Of a DNA stretch of 45,072 nucleotides, positions 37,514 through 45,072 are shown piece by piece. The translations under genes were made by a program, and so were the position numbers. The stretch is from the NCBI GenBank assembly GCA_016184305.1, contig JACPCX010000180.1:1-45072 (forward strand), written 5' to 3'. The notes beneath the pieces were generated by a model that saw only the letters and a list, made by a program, of their open reading frames with translations, made no database searches and was not told the DNA's origin. Within the stretch, counting starts at the first letter, position 1. Every line of letters starts with the position of its first letter. This DNA comes from Candidatus Rokuibacteriota bacterium. GTDB taxonomy: Bacteria; Methylomirabilota; Methylomirabilia; Rokubacteriales; CSP1-6.

Positions 37514-39580
37514 CTAGTTCAATCCCAAAGCCATGATCACGGCGCGGGTCGGCGAGTCGTAGAACTGCCACTGGATCTTGGTGAGGACGGAATCCGGGAC
37601 CTCGGCCACGTCGCGCTTATTCTCGCTGGGAATGAGGATGCGCTTCGCGCCCGCCTCGACCGCGAGTTGCATGCGCTCCGGAAGGCCGTTCACCTTGAGC
37701 AGCATCCCCTGGACGCTCATCTCGCCGAGGACGACTGTCTGCTCGAGAACCGTCTTTTCGAGCAGCGCCGAGACCATCGAAACGAAGAACGCGACGGCCG
37801 TCTCGCTCCCCTCCTTGGCCTGGTTCAGGTTGATGGCCTGGACGGAGAAGTCGTACTCCTTCGGCTCGCGCTCGATCCCGAGGTTCTTGAGGTTTGCCTT
37901 GAGGTAGGCATCGGCGGTCTTGATCGCCTCCTTCATCGTCCCGGACAGGTTGCCCAGCGGGATGATGCGCCCGGATCCCCGGTTGGTCTGAGTCTGAATG
38001 AGGAACAGCGCCAGCTTGCGATCAGCGGTGTCCGTCCCGATGGTGTAGACGGAGCCGGGTGGCAAGGGGCCCTGGACGATGAGCGAGCCCCCCCCGCTCT
38101 CCGGCACGGTGACGTAGCGTTCCTGCCCGCTGTCCCGCTCCAGGTAGGAGAAGCTCGTGTCCCAGTATTCGAGCCCGGCGATTTTCTTCAGCTGCTCCTT
38201 GACGCGACGGCGCATCTCCATGGCGAATTCGACGTACTCGCGCAGCTCGTCGCGGAACACTTCGCCGTGAGGGTTGAGCAGCTTGATGAGGCCCGACACG
38301 GTCTTCCGGACCGCCTTCTGATCGCGACCGGACAGGTGCGTCCCGAACCGCAAGTCGCGCTCGGCGTAGTCGGCGTAGCTCTGCTTGCGCAGCTCGCGGA
38401 AGACCTCGGCAAGGTAGTCGGTCACGAGGCCGAAGTGGCTGGTGTACGTCTCGTCTCGCGTCTTCTGAAGCTCCCACCCCGGCAGGTAGACGTGGATACG
38501 GTCATAGAACGCGGCGTCCATCTCCCGCGGCATCGGATAGAAGAGGTGCGAGGTCTTGACGATAGTGCCGATGTCACCGTCGAGGTTGCCCACGAAGACG
38601 ACGGAGCCTGCGGCGTTGATGATGTCGCTTCCCCGACTGAACGCGCCGTCCTCCATGTACCCCTTCATGATGTTGATGCCGTTCTTGTCCTTGAAGCTGA
38701 CGCCAGCGGCTTCGTCGAAGGCGACGACGTCCCAGAGGCACACGAGGCCCCGCTGGCCGGTCGCGAGGTTGACGAACATTTGCGCGACGGTGGTCTGCCC
38801 CCCGGAAATCAGGTGGCAATAGGGGCTGATCTGCTGGTAGACGAAGCTCTTTCCGGTGCCTCGCGGTCCAAGCTCGACCAGGTTGAAGTTCTTCTCCACC
38901 AGGGGCAGGAGCCGCGCGAGGTAGAGAAGCTTGCGCCGGTGCGTGAAGTAAGAATGGCTCGGCTCATAGCCGAGGCTGCGGAGCAGAAGATCGATCCACT
39001 TGTCCCGATCGCCCACCCGCTTGCGGCCTTCGATGAAGCTGGCCACGTCGCGGTTCGAGAGCTGGATCGGGCGGATCTTGTCGATGAAGAACGGCCTGTT
39101 CTGGCCCTTGAAGACGAAGCTGTCGTCGTAGCGGAGGGTCACCTCGGCCCAGATGCCGCCCATCAGGAGCCGGTCGTGGCGGCGGATCTCCGTCTGGTCG
39201 ATGTTGACGTAGTCGATGCTCAGGTTGGCCAGGTGGGCCCAGTACTTGTCGTGCGTCTCGACCAGAGTCACCCCGATCTTGTCGATGATCTCGTACGTGG
39301 AGTGCTGCTTGATGGCGCTCTTGACCCGCTCGCGCTCGTCGGGCTTTACGAACTTCTCCGAGAGGGTCTGCCGGACGAACTCCAGGCCCTCGCGGATGAC
39401 CTCGTCGTCGGTCGAGGAGCAGTACTTGCCGAGGAGGAACTCGATGACGAAGGCCGGCACGCCGAAGGCGCTGCGCATGCGGCGGAGGAGGTCCTTGCGG
39501 ACCACCAGGCCAGGGAAGAGGTCCACCGCGAGGGTGTCCAGCTCGTCGAGGGGTGTGGCGTGTGTCATGGGAGTCCTCAC
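37514..39580 (-). CDS. brxL: BREX Lon-related AAA+ protein BrxL
   Basis: FPGLVVRKDL...VPAFVIEFLLGKYC, ELGPRGTGKS, WDVVAFDE, MKGYMEDGAFSRG, AFYDRIH, LSGRD, C-terminal Lon-like domain; start 39580 or 39568. Confidence 0.92.
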   Translation of the reverse strand: MRTPMTHATPLDELDTLAVDLFPGLVVRKDLLRRMRSAFGVPAFVIEFLLGKYCSSTDDEVIREGLEFVRQTLSEKFVKPDERERVKSAIKQHSTYEIIDKIGVTLVETHDKYWAHLANLSIDYVNIDQTEIRRHDRLLMGGIWAEVTLRYDDSFVFKGQNRPFFIDKIRPIQLSNRDVASFIEGRKRVGDRDKWIDLLLRSLGYEPSHSYFTHRRKLLYLARLLPLVEKNFNLVELGPRGTGKSFVYQQISPYCHLISGGQTTVAQMFVNLATGQRGLVCLWDVVAFDEAAGVSFKDKNGINIMKGYMEDGAFSRGSDIINAAGSVVFVGNLDGDIGTIVKTSHLFYPMPREMDAAFYDRIHVYLPGWELQKTRDETYTSHFGLVTDYLAEVFRELRKQSYADYAERDLRFGTHLSGRDQKAVRKTVSGLIKLLNPHGEVFRDELREYVEFAMEMRRRVKEQLKKIAGLEYWDTSFSYLERDSGQERYVTVPESGGGSLIVQGPLPPGSVYTIGTDTADRKLALFLIQTQTNRGSGRIIPLGNLSGTMKEAIKTADAYLKANLKNLGIEREPKEYDFSVQAINLNQAKEGSETAVAFFVSMVSALLEKTVLEQTVVLGEMSVQGMLLKVNGLPERMQLAVEAGAKRILIPSENKRDVAEVPDSVLTKIQWQFYDSPTRAVIMALGLN

Positions 39581-42174
39581 AGGTTCCGTGCGACGGTGAG
39601 GCGGAGGCCGGCGGGCGAGAGCAGCTCCTGGTTGTCGACATCGCGGACCACCAGGTCGAGCAGATCCCCCTGCGCGAAGGAAAGCTTGTCGTCAAGCAGC
39701 AAGACCACGGTCGTGGCCTGCGCCAGGTCTGGCACGATCTCCTTGCGCACGGGCCTGACCAGCACGCTTGCGTCCTGTCGCCGGAGATCGACCTCGACCG
39801 TCCGGCCAAGGATCCGGATGAAGAGATCCACGCGCTCCGGCGGGAGCGGCTCGAGGATCACCTTCACGGCGTGAGTCTTCACCTCGTAGGCGGCGGGCAG
39901 CACACGGATGCCGACGCGCTCCGGGACCGTCTCCTTGCGGGAGACGAGGTGGGGGATCACGACCTCCTGCACGGCGACGCCGCCGTGGGCGAAGGACTTC
40001 TCCTCCTTGAAGCACGCCATTCCGGGCGGGACGGCGACGCGGACCGTGGGATCGAGCGGGAAGGGGAAGGTCTTGGCGTCGACGACCGCTCCCTCGACGA
40101 GGATCGCGTAGCGCGCCTTCGCGACGAGGGCGCGGTCGGCCGCAATGGGCACGACGGGGGGCGTCACCTCATCGCTGGTCATCACGAACCCATGGTCCGT
40201 GAGGAGGTGGACCTCCGGGTAGCCCCACTTGTGGAGCTTGCCGATGAGATTGACCAGACGCTCGACCTCGACGTGGAGGTGTCGGATGAGGTCGCTCGCG
40301 TTGTCGTGTCCGAGGCTGTCGATGGTCTCGTGCCCGAAGACGCAGAGGACGTCCGGCAGCGGCTTGGGCGGGCGGGGCGCATCCTCCGCTTCCTTGATCT
40401 CCATGCACGTCGCGCCGACGCGCTCGCGCAGGAACTGCAGGCGGGTCTGCCGATCGGAGAAGTTGGCGCCCGTCTTAGCGCTCCGAAGTCGCCCCTCGCC
40501 CGGCCCTGGCTCGTAGCGCAGCTCCTCGCCGCCGAGCGGCAAGAGGGCCGTCATCCCGACCCACGTGTGCGTGGGGATGCACGCCAGCGCCGGGGCGAGC
40601 GCCGACTCGGGCAGGTGCAGCCTCTCGCGGATGTCGAGCGCGCAGTCGTAGCGGAGCGCATCGACGATGACCACGGCGAAGGGGCGGCGGCCGCTCCACA
40701 CGCCGGCCACGATATCAGTGATCGCCGGAGCTCCCCCGATAGCCCAGGCATCAAAGCCGCGCAAGGCTTCAAAGAAGACGCTGTTCAGGCTCGTCAGGTA
40801 CTCGCCGTAGGCACGGTTGGCGACGGCGACGACCTCCTCGAGGTCGGACTCCCGCGCGGCATCGGCCACGAGGCGCCAGTGGGCCCGATCGACACGCCCC
40901 GCATAGCCGAGGTACAGGCGCACGATCTCCTCGGTGGTCGTGCAGGCGCGTGCCTTCTCTACGGCTTCCTCGCACGCAATGGCGAGCAGGGCAAGGCGGT
41001 GCAGGATCTCGAACCCGCGGACCGGCTCCGGGCTCGCGCGGGTGAAGTCGGCCTCGGCGCCGAGCTCCTTGGCACGCTCTCACAGGAGCGGGAGGTACTG
41101 GCTCTTCTGCCGTGCCGCGTCACGGAACTGGTCGTAGAAGGTGCGGAAGCGAAGGCGCGTGAGGTGGGGGAAGGCGAACGAGGTACCGGCGCGCCCCTTC
41201 GCCCAAGTCGAGAGATCGTGGTCGCGCTCGACCCGCCGGACCAGCCGGTGGTAGTCAGCCGCGGCCGAGCCGTCCTTCAGCCAGCGCCTCAGGAACTGCA
41301 CGTAGCGCGCGCGGTAGGGTGGATCCGGAAGCACTGACGCGAAGGGGAAGTCGGTCGGTTCGCCGTAGGCCTCGTAGGTCTCGGTGAGTGCCAGGCGCAG
41401 CACGAGGTCGGCCAGCCACTCGTCCATCACCAGGTCCGGCGGGAGGCCAGGCTGCGAATCCGGCAGCGGGGCGGGGCGGGAGAAGCCGAACGCGTCCCGC
41501 ACCTGCTGCACGAACTCGCCGAGGAGCCCATCCTGGACGAGCTGTGCAAGCCGCTCGGCAGGATCGGCGGCGAGGTCGAGGATGGCTTGCTCGACGTCGC
41601 CCACGACCTGTTGCCGGGCCCAGGCCGGCGTCAGCGCGTGCTCCCAGAATCGGGCATCGCGCTCCGCGAAGCGGGCGGCGAACTTGGCGAGGAGGGAATC
41701 GCGGCCTCCATCCCAGAGCACGCGCTGCTCCTTCGGGTCGCTGGGGAGCTTGACGCCCGCCCGGCGCAGGAAGGCGAAGAGCGTCGGCTTCTTGCCGTCC
41801 ACCAGCCAGGTGGCTCCGAGGTACCGGTACTCGAGGAGGAAGTCGGCCGAGAAGCCGCCTTCTTCCTCCGGACCGTCGAGCCTCTCCGCCGGGAACGGCA
41901 GGTAGAGCACGTACCGGCGCGCCTCGCGCTCCGCAGGCGGAAGATCGCGGGTCGTCCAGTGGATCTGGTGCTTCATCCAGAGCTGGCCGTGGCTAGCCTT
42001 CTCCTCGTAGCGGAGCAGCGTGAACGGCGGCGTCTTGAGGGAAAACAGGTGCTTCTCGATCGCGGGGAGGAGCCGCTCGAACTCGCGCTTCTCGTCGAAC
42101 CAGAGCGCGATCCGGGCCTGGGCATGCCGCCCGAAGAGGGCCCGGAACTCCTCGGTGAGCGCGGCGAGGATCAT
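39577..42174 (-). pseudogene. pglZ: BREX alkaline-phosphatase-family protein PglZ interrupted by one in-frame TGA at 41082-41080
   Basis: ORFs 41080-42174 and 39577-40923 share a frame with a single stop between them; VIVDALRYD, PTHTWVGMTALLP, IDSLGH, TDHGF, FAHGG...QEVVIP. Confidence 0.85.
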
Positions 42175-42665
42175 TTGTCGGGAGGCTCTCCGGCTCGCTC
42201 CAGCACCGCGGCGCGCGTGTGTGCGGCCAGACGAAAACCCAATGCATCGAGCTGATCGAGCAGCGGACGAATGCTCGACACCAGGCCCGCGCGTTTCGCG
42301 TCGAGAAGGATGCCCAGAGTCCCCGTCAAGCGCAGCTTCAAGGTTTCGGCCACGCGGCGCGCAACCGCGTCGTCAATCACGACCACCGACTCCGGGCTCT
42401 CCAGACCCAACGCCAGGACCTCGGTTTCGCCCGGGCCGAGATCGGTGACCAACGGAAGAGCGGCAAAGCTCGCCGGCCGCCGCATGGTGATCCAGCTGAA
42501 CGCCACTACATCGGGGACGTTCAGGCCGAGACTTCGCCCCGCCGCCAGCTCGTGAACCACCGCCGGGGGCACGACCACGGTCGTCGCGAGTGGGCGCAGC
42601 ACGCGAACGAGCTCCAGTTGGTGGAGGTACTGCAGCGGCGAGGTGTTGCAGATCAGGTCAGGCAA
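42171..42665 (-). CDS. DUF3368-like PIN domain protein (putative toxin)
   Basis: ICNTSPLQYL, VPPAVVHEL, LGPGETEVL, IDDAVARR, GTLGILLDAK. Confidence 0.88.
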   Translation of the reverse strand: MPDLICNTSPLQYLHQLELVRVLRPLATTVVVPPAVVHELAAGRSLGLNVPDVVAFSWITMRRPASFAALPLVTDLGPGETEVLALGLESPESVVVIDDAVARRVAETLKLRLTGTLGILLDAKRAGLVSSIRPLLDQLDALGFRLAAHTRAAVLERAGEPPDK

Positions 42666-42909
42666 GCCGCGTCTCCCGGTCGAGCTGCTCGCCGGTGAGG
42701 CGGAACGTCTCGACCCCGTAGTCAGCGAGCTTGTTGAGGAACGCGACGCGCGGCAGCCCGGCCAGCTTCGCCGCCGCGCCCGAGGAGAGGCGGCCGAGTT
42801 CGTAGAGCTTGACCGCAGCCGCCAGGCGCAGCTCGGCGCCGACCTGTTCAGGATTCAGCTTGAGCGCCAGGAGCGTTTCGTCAGGAATGCTCAGTGTCAC
42901 TTCGCTCAT
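42658..42909 (-). CDS. UPF0175-family putative antitoxin
   Basis: ELRLAAAVKLYELGRLSSGAAAKLAGLPRVAFL pattern; overlaps the PIN gene. Confidence 0.88.
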   Translation of the reverse strand: MSEVTLSIPDETLLALKLNPEQVGAELRLAAAVKLYELGRLSSGAAAKLAGLPRVAFLNKLADYGVETFRLTGEQLDRETRLA

Positions 42910-42964
42910 GAGTCACCTCGCTGCGACGATTCGTCGCTCGCGCCGATCGTCTCTGTCGCACACG

Positions 42965-44884
42965 TCACTCCTCGTCGATTCCCTTGGTCGAGACCACCTT
43001 GGCGATGCGCAGGAGGCCCGCCGTCTGGAGCGGCAGGATGTTCACCTTGACGCCGTCGTCGATGTCGGGGTCCCAGCCCTTTGGCTGCTCGGCGGCCTTC
43101 TTCCACGGCACGCGGATGGGGAAGCGCCCCTCTTCGAGGGCCTGGAGTTTCTTGTCGAACGCCTGCGCCTCCTCGATGTCCCGCTGGATCTCCAGCGCCT
43201 CATCGGTCCGGTTGGCCTGACGCGCCAGCGCTAGGTCGCGCCCGCGGCGCTCGATGAAGGACCGCACATGGGTCCCGCGCAGCTTGCGTAGGGCGTCCTT
43301 CCGGAACCGGTGGTAGTGGGCGAGCACCGCGAACGCCGGCGTGCCCCCTCCCTCGGGTGCGGAGGCCAGATGCCAGAAGATCGGCCGGCTCTTGTAGAGG
43401 CGGACGTGGTGCTCGAAGTAAGCGTTGGCGAGGAAGTCCCCGATCGACTCAACGCGCCTGTACCCGGGCACTTTCTTTCGTAGCTCGGATGCCAGCTCGC
43501 CCTCGAGGATGTGTGCCCGGTCTTCACTTACGAGCGCCGCGAGCTCCCTGAGGACGCGATCTTCTAACGGCGGCTCGTTGTTGCAGGCAACGAGCGGCAC
43601 GATGCCGTCGTCGTCCCCCTCGACGGTCCCCTTCACGTAGAACGACAGGAGCCGAATGACGTGCTCCACCCGCTTCTGTTCGGCGCTCTTGCCCTCCATC
43701 TGGGGCCAGATGACTTCCGGCGGGCGCGGCCCCAGATCCTTGACAACCACCTCCCGGGTTTCTGGAGAGAGCCCGTAGGCGTCGAAGACCGCCCCATCGA
43801 GCTCGGCATACCAGGCCTGGATCTCTGCGTCCGCCGCGGCCTCGCGGGCGAGCAGTGCGTCAAGCGCCTCGGCGACGGGCCGTTCTGGGCGCTCGCGAAG
43901 CGCGGCCGCCAGCCAGGGCTCCCTGAAGCGCGTTGAGGTCTCGTTTCCCCCGGCCCAAGCCGCCTTGGCGTCGTGGATGTGGCGCGCGAGCGAAGCAATA
44001 TGCTGTCTCGGTTCGGCCCCCGGGCGGGGAATTGGTAGCTTCTGGATGACGCCAACTTCCCACCGCCCTCCCATCTGCTCCCGGGATGTCCGCGCCTTGC
44101 ATAAGTAGAAGACGATTGAACTGTTCAGAACACCGAGAAGATAGTCACTATCGGCAGGATCCTTCGGAAAGATCGCCGGGCCTTTGTGGCCGAAGATGCA
44201 GCCCCCGGGCATCGCCCGCACGTTGAAGACTTTCGCCGCAAGGGGCCACGTTAGACCGGGACGAAGGTACCAACCCACGGACTTGATGATGCGCGACCAG
44301 CCCGAGTTGCCGTATAGCGGGTCGGCCCAAGCCTTAATCTCGGTGCCTTCGTGCTCCCAGTTGACCGCGAGGAAGACATCAGAGTAGAAGGGCGAGTACG
44401 CGCCACCCTTGGCAAAAGGAACCCACTTCCTGTCCCGGCCAAGAGTGCTAGGAAGCACTTCCCACCGATGCCGAACGAATCGCGGATCGTTCGCCGTTGC
44501 CATCCCCTGGCGAGCATCGGCAAGGGCGGGCTGAAGGGCAGCGGCCGTACGGAAGAGGTGCAGGACGGCAGCAGGCAACCAGTACGAAAGCGGCGCGCCT
44601 TCGACAGCGAGCAGGTCCCGGCGCGATATGTCGAATCGGACCCCCTGCGCCTCACCCGCAAGCGCCTTGACGAGCAACTTCTCGCGCGCGTCATCCGCCT
44701 GAGTTAGCCGGAGGAACGCCACACGCGGCTCCTCGAAGACGATCCTGTAGACTTCCTCCGCGCGAGCGTCGGAGATCTCGATGCCCTCCTGGCGCTGGGA
44801 GGCCGCGATCGCCGATAGCATCAGGCGCCTTTTCTTGTCGGGATCCCTCAGGAACGGGTTCTTCTCGCTCAAACGCTTGCCCAT
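42965..44884 (-). CDS. pglX: BREX methyltransferase PglX/BrxX C-terminal half (TRD + C-terminal domain) with N-terminal Fic-antitoxin-like segment
   Basis: FLRL...GAPLSYW, QGMATANDPRFVRHRWEV, KWVPFAKGG, GLTW, LGVLNS, HVRLYKSRPIFWHL, PDIDDGVKVNILPL; no NPPY or SAM-binding motif; GGGGGAG RBS and TGATG coupling. Confidence 0.82.
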   Translation of the reverse strand: MGKRLSEKNPFLRDPDKKRRLMLSAIAASQRQEGIEISDARAEEVYRIVFEEPRVAFLRLTQADDAREKLLVKALAGEAQGVRFDISRRDLLAVEGAPLSYWLPAAVLHLFRTAAALQPALADARQGMATANDPRFVRHRWEVLPSTLGRDRKWVPFAKGGAYSPFYSDVFLAVNWEHEGTEIKAWADPLYGNSGWSRIIKSVGWYLRPGLTWPLAAKVFNVRAMPGGCIFGHKGPAIFPKDPADSDYLLGVLNSSIVFYLCKARTSREQMGGRWEVGVIQKLPIPRPGAEPRQHIASLARHIHDAKAAWAGGNETSTRFREPWLAAALRERPERPVAEALDALLAREAAADAEIQAWYAELDGAVFDAYGLSPETREVVVKDLGPRPPEVIWPQMEGKSAEQKRVEHVIRLLSFYVKGTVEGDDDGIVPLVACNNEPPLEDRVLRELAALVSEDRAHILEGELASELRKKVPGYRRVESIGDFLANAYFEHHVRLYKSRPIFWHLASAPEGGGTPAFAVLAHYHRFRKDALRKLRGTHVRSFIERRGRDLALARQANRTDEALEIQRDIEEAQAFDKKLQALEEGRFPIRVPWKKAAEQPKGWDPDIDDGVKVNILPLQTAGLLRIAKVVSTKGIDEE

Positions 44885-45072
44885 CACGCTCCCCCACGTG
44901 CCAGCGCGGCGTCCAGCCAGCGCCGGAGCAGTGTCGCCAGCGGCCCGTGATTGGCCCGGACTCGCCCTTCCTCGCAGGCGTGGATATAGTCGTTCCCGTC
45001 CCGGTCACGATCCCATTCGGCGATGGGCGGGAGATCGTTCTGAAGGAAGAGCAAGGACCCGACGACGCGCAC
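44884..45072 (-). CDS. 3' end of an ORF resembling the C-terminal helices of a Fic/Doc domain (5' part outside window)
   Basis: VRVVGSLLFLQNDLPPI...DYIHAC...NHGPLATLL fits the segment after HPFxDGNGRxxR; the catalytic motif itself is not visible. Confidence 0.5.
   Translation of the reverse strand: MRVVGSLLFLQNDLPPIAEWDRDRDGNDYIHACEEGRVRANHGPLATLLRRWLDAALARGGA

Follow-up and report, generated by a model that had tools for sequence, protein, structure and literature searches.

The window analysed here is a stretch of 45,072 nt that makes up the whole of contig JACPCX010000180.1, from an assembly of a Candidatus Rokuibacteriota bacterium (GCA_016184305.1), and it ends inside a bacteriophage exclusion (BREX) locus. 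On the minus strand, the 3′ end of a Fic-family gene is followed by pglX-C, which encodes the recognition half of the BREX-1 protein PglX (target recognition domain, TRD, and C-terminal region), preceded by a short N-terminal module; pglZ and brxL lie further downstream (Table 1). The pglX-C product has 640 residues from GTG 44887 and 639 from ATG 44884, and residues are numbered from the GTG unless the ATG is stated (ATG numbering is one less). The ATG (44884-44882) shares its A with the Fic stop codon in a TGATG overlap, the GTG being an alternative start. The coupled start, the ribosome-binding site GGGGGAG and the S-Q-R-Q-E-G hexapeptide had been proposed in an earlier description made from the letters alone (the sequence-only reading), and all three are confirmed in the window. 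In relatives, the same junction carries GGGAGG.

Table 1. Features at the BREX end of the window, in window positions
Feature	Position	Strand	Remarks
3′ end of Fic-family gene	45072..44884	-	62 codons at 45072-44887, stop TGA at 44886-44884; truncated by the contig end
Shine-Dalgarno-like GGGGGAG	44895-44889	-	4 nt ahead of ATG 44884
pglX-C, recognition (TRD and C-terminal) half of BREX-1 PglX with N-terminal add-on	42965..44887	-	PADLOC and NCBIfam models
N-terminal module of ~55 aa, candidate Fic-inhibitory domain	44723..44887	-	Outside all PglX models
S30-Q-R-Q-E34-G35	44800-44783	-	Fits (S/T)xxxE(G/N); C-terminal end of the long helix
TRD of PglX with long spacer helices and C-terminal region	42968..44722	-	Profile matches and AlphaFold model; domain names after the available text of PMC11341690
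pglZ	39577..42174	-	Single frame broken by an in-frame TGA; PADLOC and NCBIfam profiles, tblastn
brxL (Lon-like)	37514..39580	-	Pfam BrxL_ATPase 5.2e-128, BrxL_N 1.7e-42, Lon_C 5.6e-23
UPF0175 (83 aa) and DUF3368 (164 aa) pair, between pglX-C and pglZ	42171..42909	-	Pfam PF03683 1.8e-25, PF11848 4.1e-13

The 640-aa product finds nothing in Pfam, and is recognized by the PglX models of PADLOC and NCBIfam, which align only from residues 51-67 on, equivalent to model positions ~590-660 of ~1200. NF033452 pairs residues 67-417 with positions 638-981 (E 2.2e-67) and matches again at positions 1013-1209 of 1210; its score of 227.9 bits falls short of the cut-off of 500 set for full-length proteins, which is no surprise for half a protein. 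PDLC02521 is aligned at positions 592-924 of 1174, and 13 PADLOC PglX models match at E≤1e-9. The protein therefore lacks the methyltransferase part, and its first ~55 residues are outside PglX. This agrees with the sequence-only reading, which had noted the absence of methyltransferase motifs and a likeness to PglX from about residue 54; the objection that this segment might be ordinary PglX sequence falls away, as it lies outside all PglX models. PDLC02532, the PADLOC model for a separate PglX C-half (682 positions), matches with E 4.4e-57 and begins at residue 58 of the window's protein, so that the ~55 residues have been added to a two-gene form that was known before. Both the homology to the PglX TRD and C-terminal region and the linked pglZ and brxL are present in the window, and the AlphaFold model of the protein reaches a mean pLDDT of 84.5.

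Sixty-two residues of the Fic protein remain in the window. Aligned with the C-termini of 8 Fic proteins, they show 39-47% identity and share 17 invariant columns, which bears out the suspicion that the upstream open reading frame (ORF) ends like a Fic domain, and they are 94% identical to the C-terminus of P0280, a 274-aa Fic protein that has HPFREGNGRAVR. Because the window is the entire contig and the signature lies beyond its end, only V-R, the two final residues of the signature, can be read at the start of the piece. None of the PADLOC models matches these 62 residues.

The upstream DNA is available in relatives. A scan of one genome per species gives 9 loci with relatives of the window's PglX-C (41-47% identity), which their records assign to Polyangiaceae, Myxococcaceae, Vicinamibacterales (three loci), Bryobacteraceae, Syntrophobacteraceae, Armatimonadia and a gammaproteobacterium. 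The Armatimonadia contig begins inside the pglX-C gene and has no upstream DNA. The other 8 loci span at least 3 phyla and share, in 8 of 8, the order brxC, pglX-N (the NPPY-containing half), Fic, module plus pglX-C, and pglZ, the brxC of L011 falling before the start of its short contig. The pglX-N product ends in ...GILDDATVE..., and the Fic protein that follows is in every case a separate ORF of 285-291 aa with HPFREGNGRTAF and a Shine-Dalgarno site of its own. At every junction of pglX-N, Fic and pglX-C in the 8 relatives there is a Shine-Dalgarno site and an overlap of a few bases. The same split thus recurs in other genomes, where the sequence-only reading had advised looking for it; the fusion of methyltransferase and Fic that it had considered is not what these loci encode.

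The position of the cut can be read from L013, whose pglX-N matches Eco57I of Pfam (6.9e-18). On a single PADLOC model, PDLC02527, the NPPY ORF of this locus covers positions 150-657 and the window's ORF starts at 662; the cut therefore removes nothing. In the Salmonella PglX the methyltransferase domain comprises residues 227-661 and the TRD residues 662-849, with the hinge at 661/662 (PMC11341690, available text). The proposed insertion of Fic at the boundary between methyltransferase and TRD is accordingly found in the relatives, where the Fic gene occupies the hinge of a split pglX.

A wider set of module-bearing loci consists of the best 80 of 241 metagenome loci and of 34 viral-contig loci, in total 114, with some contigs counted twice because they occur in both sets (e.g., L090/L106, L091/L105). 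Sorted by script, 48 of these loci hold fused forms, 50 free-standing copies, 5 are cut by a contig end and 11 are of intermediate length. Fic lies directly upstream in 40 of the 46 fused forms that have at least 400 bp of upstream sequence. In the genomes searched, the Fic/pglX system is rare and patchy: the module occurs in 0 of 250 other genomes of the window's phylum, and P0280 finds no match at E≤1e-30 in 400 other genomes sampled from the phylum of L008. This distribution suggests horizontal spread. Among plasmids, a Fic query has no match.

The Fic proteins of the relatives match Pfam PF02661 (4e-14 to 7e-13) and, in a profile search of PDB sequences, FICD (2.4e-14) and VbhT (2e-10). 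The fold is that of Fic: the AlphaFold model (pLDDT 78.1) retrieves FICD with Foldseek (6.9e-7, probability 1.00), followed by Bep Fic domains and VbhT (3.8e-5). Among defense models, PADLOC PDC-S04 (PDLC04839) fits at 8.4e-34 (L008) and 5.8e-30 (L013), beside which the match to the SoFic model (2e-8) is weak. The family comprises 747 proteins at E≤1e-3 among 5612 candidates; the best 120 of the 747 are 66-90% identical, measure 266-353 aa and are annotated only as “Fic family protein” or “cell filamentation protein.” All 29 aligned proteins keep the His, Asn and first Arg of the signature. The pattern [ST]xxxE[GN] is found in 0 of these 29 over the whole sequence, therefore there is no internal inhibitor of class II or III, and by sequence the Fic of the split pglX is class-I-like, having no inhibitory helix of its own. 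All family members carry an extra N-terminal domain of ~90 aa (three strands and a helix; WRWxEKDFGFRF...; e.g., L008:9106-9375) that matches no family. Two clades can be distinguished, the abundant L006-type and the window's own. The latter includes 7 full-length relatives of 273-274 aa, 94-69% identical to the window's 62-aa piece, and all 7 have the canonical HPFREGNGR(A/T)(V/A)R; the window's piece itself keeps the second signature Arg. Proteins of this clade are ~15 aa shorter, and the module paired with them has diverged (SQRQEG, not TQAREG).

The (S/T)xxxE(G/N) motif is that of the inhibitory helix in VbhA-type Fic antitoxins. In the model of the window's protein, the module forms helices at residues 2-8, 15-32 and 39-51 (numbered from ATG 44884), and the E-G of the motif ends the long helix, before the TRD. 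Across 30 aligned modules, L13, R20, M23, A29, Q31, E34, A43, Y47, V50 and E52 are invariant and the motif reads A(T/S/I/V/L)Q(A/R)(R/Q)E(G/N), with E in 30/30, G or N in 30/30 and S or T in 25/30. Searched against 1.84 billion proteins, a profile of the 58-aa module recovers 341 cluster representatives at E≤1e-3, of which 154 reach E≤1e-10, so the module is more than chance. By motif and position, the module resembles the inhibitory helix of VbhA/FicA; it is not a demonstrable member of that family. Its local alignment with YhfG lays motif on motif, (T)IQA(T)QAREGIE against NFQASRRLEGV(D/E). With a 16-row YhfG alignment, hhalign gives 14-15 columns (P 0.0078-0.13). The ESM Atlas leads for the module are viral hypothetical clusters (0.88-0.89), with a YhfG cluster at rank 12 (score 0.85). 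The top PDB match, a serine hydrolase at 0.0044 over 22 residues, was taken as chance.

Contact between the two proteins was modeled with the L008 pair, using its Fic (alignment of 29) and the first 78 aa of its PglX-C (alignment of 30). The runs give ipSAE values of 0.93, 0.93 and 0.92, the best of 3 controls 0.00; 116 of 157 solved complexes attain this mark, as do 2 of 215 mismatched pairs, counts that apply here only roughly because the model was run with the analysts' own alignments. Runs share at least 85% of contacts, with a partner pLDDT of 70-72. In this model, module residues 3-10, 25-38 and 42-51 contact Fic residues 105-117, 195-197, 220, 222-223, 226-227 and 236-246. The motif helix (25-38) meets the signature loop (220, 222, 223, 226) and residues 105-117, T30 pairing with signature residues R223 and F226. 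The complex prediction advised in the sequence-only reading, run on a homologous pair, thus places the motif helix on the active-site loop of Fic.

Many relatives of the module are proteins of 55-72 aa with the core RRVxIxAILxDPxLRRxLMVxxIxATQAREGIxTTxEQAExAYDxV. Ten that were looked up are unnamed or “hypothetical,” some of them on contigs of up to 465 kb. Of the 50 loci with free-standing copies (55-75 aa), 26 were obtained in the scan of viral contigs, and several of those from metagenomes duplicate these contigs; a Fic gene is present in the flanks of 0 of the 50. The 34 viral loci divide into 26 free-standing copies, 3 fused BREX forms, 4 of intermediate length and 1 inside a 2537-aa frame. 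In 10 of these loci, 32 of 134 neighboring ORFs match PHROGs at E≤1e-5, among them a large terminase, a phage RNA polymerase and an integrase in L103, a small terminase in L116, and elsewhere homing and HNH endonucleases, an exonuclease, a sigma factor and a helicase. Free copies are on average 55% and up to 73% identical to the fused module of the L006 type, and thus nearer to it than the module of the window, which is 40% identical to that type. Two of them, used as tblastn queries, have no match in 50,697 cultured-phage records. The 2537-aa frame (L098:1821-9431, on an IMG/VR contig) carries the module at residues 1058-1114, has no Pfam match at E≤1e-3, and may represent a large phage protein of several domains. 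Some proteins of 120-300 aa bear the module C-terminally behind unrelated sequence; one of them, P0164 (299 aa), has an HELGH stretch resembling a metalloprotease motif. Pfam at E≤1e-3 gives nothing in 11 such mid-length proteins, the P0164 type included.

The reading we prefer, with little more than even confidence, is that Fic is a toxin guarded by PglX-C in a conserved variant of type 1 BREX, and that phage-borne copies of the inhibitor counter it. The toxicity of Fic, its trigger and its target we infer. In this variant PglX is encoded by two genes cut at the hinge, with Fic in the gap and translationally coupled to both halves. Since the module helix is predicted on the active-site loop, where its (S/T)QxxEG end would sit as VbhA and FicA do, PglX-C would double as the antitoxin. 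Intact PglX-C would hold Fic, a back-up effector or toxin, in check one-to-one. Should an anti-BREX factor of a phage, for instance, bind, displace or degrade PglX-C, or should this subunit cease to be made, Fic would be freed and would modify a cellular target by AMPylation or a related transfer, giving rise to growth stop and abortive infection. Phages would reply with free-standing copies of the inhibitory module.

Phages are known to inhibit PglX with mimics such as Ocr. A tentative extension, which we hold to be rather less than evenly probable, is a three-layer arms race. The inhibitor of the toxin would be welded to PglX-C, the target of anti-BREX factors; disabling BREX would free Fic; and phages would have acquired the inhibitor in free form, which would keep Fic plugged or prise PglX-C off it. 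On the same terms, and with the same reserve, the copies could form a new class of anti-defense proteins on uncultured phages, several on contigs of more than 100 kb.

Several results weigh against a guarded toxin. Five of the 30 modules have I, V or L where the motif calls for S/T. The module has no match to any Pfam or NCBIfam family (E≤1 to 10), VbhA/YhfG included, and a PDB profile search (E≤10) returns no antitoxin chain. Against E. coli YhfG, hhalign gives 12-15 columns with P 0.0078-0.39 and a probability of at most 5%; the profile-profile comparison with VbhA/FicA, which the sequence-only reading had suggested, thus aligned just a 15-column motif. The idea of an antitoxin fused to PglX-C therefore holds for the conserved inhibitory-type motif (E in 30/30) and its modeled place on the Fic loop, and fails for membership of the VbhA/FicA family. 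That the module binds Fic with the Glu at the active site is predicted from a model. Likeness to solved complexes (VbhA/VbhT, BiaA/Bep, FicA/FicT) can by itself give such a pass, therefore the model shows likeness to these complexes, not binding. Proteins of the L006-type clade have HPFREGNGRxAF in 27 of 29 and Phe at the place of the second Arg in 29 of 29. In canonical Fic proteins this Arg holds the ATP γ-phosphate, where the inhibitory Glu sits (PMC3667792, available text). Because Phe replaces it, this clade may depart from the standard AMP-transferases, or from their usual mode of inhibition. An intact Fic is missing next to six of the 46 fused forms (L030, L032, L045, L060, L098, L101). 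In L030 (1357-4004), ORFs of 814 and 68 aa separate Fic from pglX-C and Fic is 2.5 kb off; in L101 (4784-4999) Fic is reduced to a 71-aa remnant; in L045 (2-625) another ORF stands upstream; and the fused form of L098 is not a PglX-C.

The state of the window's own copy counts on the same side. The window holds a mere 62 aa of Fic, and the rest of the system was not found in the assembly: queries for the PglX N-half (NF033452, PDLC02521), Fic (PF02661) and BrxC (from L008) match nothing outside the window's contig. The assembly is metagenome-derived (239 contigs), and since it is 88.8% complete, missing parts do not show absence. In pglZ, an in-frame TGA at 41080-41082 (minus strand) interrupts what is a single tblastn alignment to residues 1-860 of the L006 PglZ (38% identity). 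This may be either a nonsense codon, which would probably make the gene a pseudogene, or a recoded codon; because of it, the window's locus may be decaying.

The main rival, unlikely in our estimate, makes Fic an assembly or regulatory subunit of BREX rather than a toxin. Its core would grip the module of PglX-C and its ~90-aa N-terminal domain possibly PglX-N, so that Fic would re-join the split methyltransferase; alternatively, the target of its modification would be a BREX component or a phage protein. On this view the copies in phages would act as decoys, stripping PglX-C from the complex and so inactivating BREX. The extra N-terminal domain conserved in all family members, the tight coupling of Fic to both pglX halves and the Phe found in 29 of 29 proteins of the large clade, which fits a non-canonical role, all speak for a subunit; free phage copies suit a decoy as well as an antitoxin, and Fic in complex with its antitoxin can act as an enzyme in its own right, a deAMPylase (PMC13327609, available text). 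On the other side, the catalytic His, Asn and first Arg are invariant in 29 of 29 and the window's clade is fully canonical, and other lineages with a split pglX, represented by the PADLOC models of separate halves, work without Fic. The predicted contact is kept in this explanation, and computation does not separate it from the guarded toxin.

The remaining explanations are less likely than either of these. It is distinctly improbable that Fic and module are unrelated passengers, with Fic a cargo defense gene between the pglX halves and the module serving another job such as DNA or partner binding. The lack of a Fic neighbor in all 50 free-standing copies and the absence of the module from any antitoxin family by sequence would fit such independence. 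Against it, module and Fic occur together in 8/8 genome loci and 40/46 metagenome and viral loci, the complex model, which lays the motif on the signature loop, reaches 0.93 where the best control gives 0.00, and the one local alignment of the module with E. coli YhfG pairs the two motifs. Slightly less probable again is an addiction module, in which the Fic/module pair would stabilize the BREX island mainly by killing cells in which pglX-C is lost or broken, with no role in infection. Class I Fic pairs are toxin-antitoxin modules (PMC3667792, available text), and a rare, patchy system (0/250 and 0/400 genomes) suggests horizontal spread. Post-segregational killing, however, works only where the antitoxin is the less stable partner, and the antitoxin here would be part of a structural protein of 640 aa; addiction alone also hardly accounts for the copies found in phages. 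That the whole is an artefact, a frameshift, assembly error or chance motif in a continuous pglX, which might be suspected of a metagenome-assembled contig ending inside the Fic gene, has a negligible probability and is in effect already refuted by the three-ORF layout repeated in dozens of independent assemblies, by the Logan contigs of 4 runs that span the junction unchanged save for one low-depth variant, and by the 154 matches to the module profile at E≤1e-10.

These Logan contigs come from four runs of one study (X1-X4, three of which may be the source sample) and span 40500-45072. Over this range they differ from the window only by T>C at 42002 (X4) and by a low-depth variant contig (X3), and the letters of the pglZ TGA are identical in all four runs. 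The contigs of X1, X2 and X4 continue 80, 439 and 1223 nt past 45072. Matches of 22-31 nt to other contigs, which account for “joints” and most loose ends in the Logan data, were disregarded. The split is accordingly no frameshift or assembly error, contrary to a doubt raised in the sequence-only reading, since dozens of assemblies share the layout and the contigs of 4 runs agree over the junction. The X3 variant contig (44837-44961; depth 5.2 of 12.1) differs by 4 substitutions and lacks 1 nt at 44891. This deletion, three codons ahead of the Fic stop, would shift Fic into the third frame, open to 44691.

The UPF0175 and DUF3368 ORFs between pglX-C and pglZ overlap and look like a toxin-antitoxin pair, with last codons that overlap the start of pglZ. 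The pair is not found at the pglX-C/pglZ junction in L006 or L008; it is an extra insert of the window's locus and not part of the Fic module.

Among the nearest parallels are the class I Fic pairs (VbhT/VbhA of Bartonella; FicT/FicA, that is Fic/YhfG, of E. coli), which likewise have a Fic fold without its own inhibitory helix and a partner helix ending in (S/T)xxxE(G/N), modeled here on the signature loop; the S-R-R-L-E-G of YhfG is in register with the motif of the module. In contrast to these pairs, the inhibitor here would be the N-terminus of a 640-aa BREX subunit encoded downstream of the toxin and has no VbhA/YhfG membership by sequence, Fic has the extra ~90-aa N-terminal domain, and one clade has Phe at the second signature Arg. 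For class I toxins, GyrB and ParE are the precedents as targets.

As a case of self-guarding defense, the textbook example is PrrC/EcoprrI. PrrC is a toxin, an anticodon nuclease, nested in the type I restriction-modification (R-M) system EcoprrI, masked by its subunits and thought to fire upon inhibition by phage (10.1101/2024.01.29.577857, main text). As in that system, the gene of a toxic enzyme would lie between the subunits of a modification-based defense; embedding is shared, and so is, as a prediction, the masking contact. The differences are Fic here in place of an ABC-type RNase, BREX in place of type I R-M, and a masking element that would be a recognizable add-on domain fused to the specificity subunit. 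SoFic, a Fic-domain protein that protects against phage by toxicity and has a small downstream antitoxin, AS1 (PMC12249575; 10.1101/2022.05.11.491447, available text of both), differs in being class II with an internal inhibitory helix and stand-alone, without a tie to BREX.

Fic-like genes embedded in such loci are already catalogued: the PDC models of PADLOC derive from genes that sit within BREX, DISARM or type I R-M loci (10.1101/2024.01.29.577857, main text), and the Fic here matches one of these candidates, PDC-S04. The main text of that work has 0 mentions of Fic, PglX or split, and that of a BREX diversity survey (PMC12839542), whose supplement may list embedded genes, has 0 of “Fic” or “split.” PMC9881135 mentions a PglX that is split in another way and, unconnected with it, a type I R-M locus containing a Fic/DOC gene. 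Two-gene PglX as represented in the separate-half models of PADLOC differs from the present form in that 10.1101/2024.01.29.577857 reports for it neither a cargo-specific inhibitory domain on PglX-C nor phage copies. No description of an inhibitory module fused to PglX-C, nor of phage-borne copies, was found in full-text literature searches, on which supplements may bear. New here are the 50 free-standing module copies of 55-75 aa, none beside Fic.

Phages also encode substitutes for antitoxins, such as Dmd of T4 against RnlA/LsoA. The free copies would be alike in that a phage carries an inhibitor of a host toxin that would otherwise abort the infection; they differ in that their function is inferred and that two queries find none in the 50,697 cultured-phage records.

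If the guarded-toxin reading is true, a toxin tied to the specificity subunit would be an example, readable from sequence, of a defense system guarding itself, and the small phage module proteins would be a family that may hold new anti-defense factors. Testable parts are at hand in a Fic protein of ~290 aa, an inhibitor of 55 aa and a one-residue E-to-G switch. The gap between the pglX halves would then be not only a passive slot for cargo, and the gene flanking it would have co-evolved with what the slot contains.

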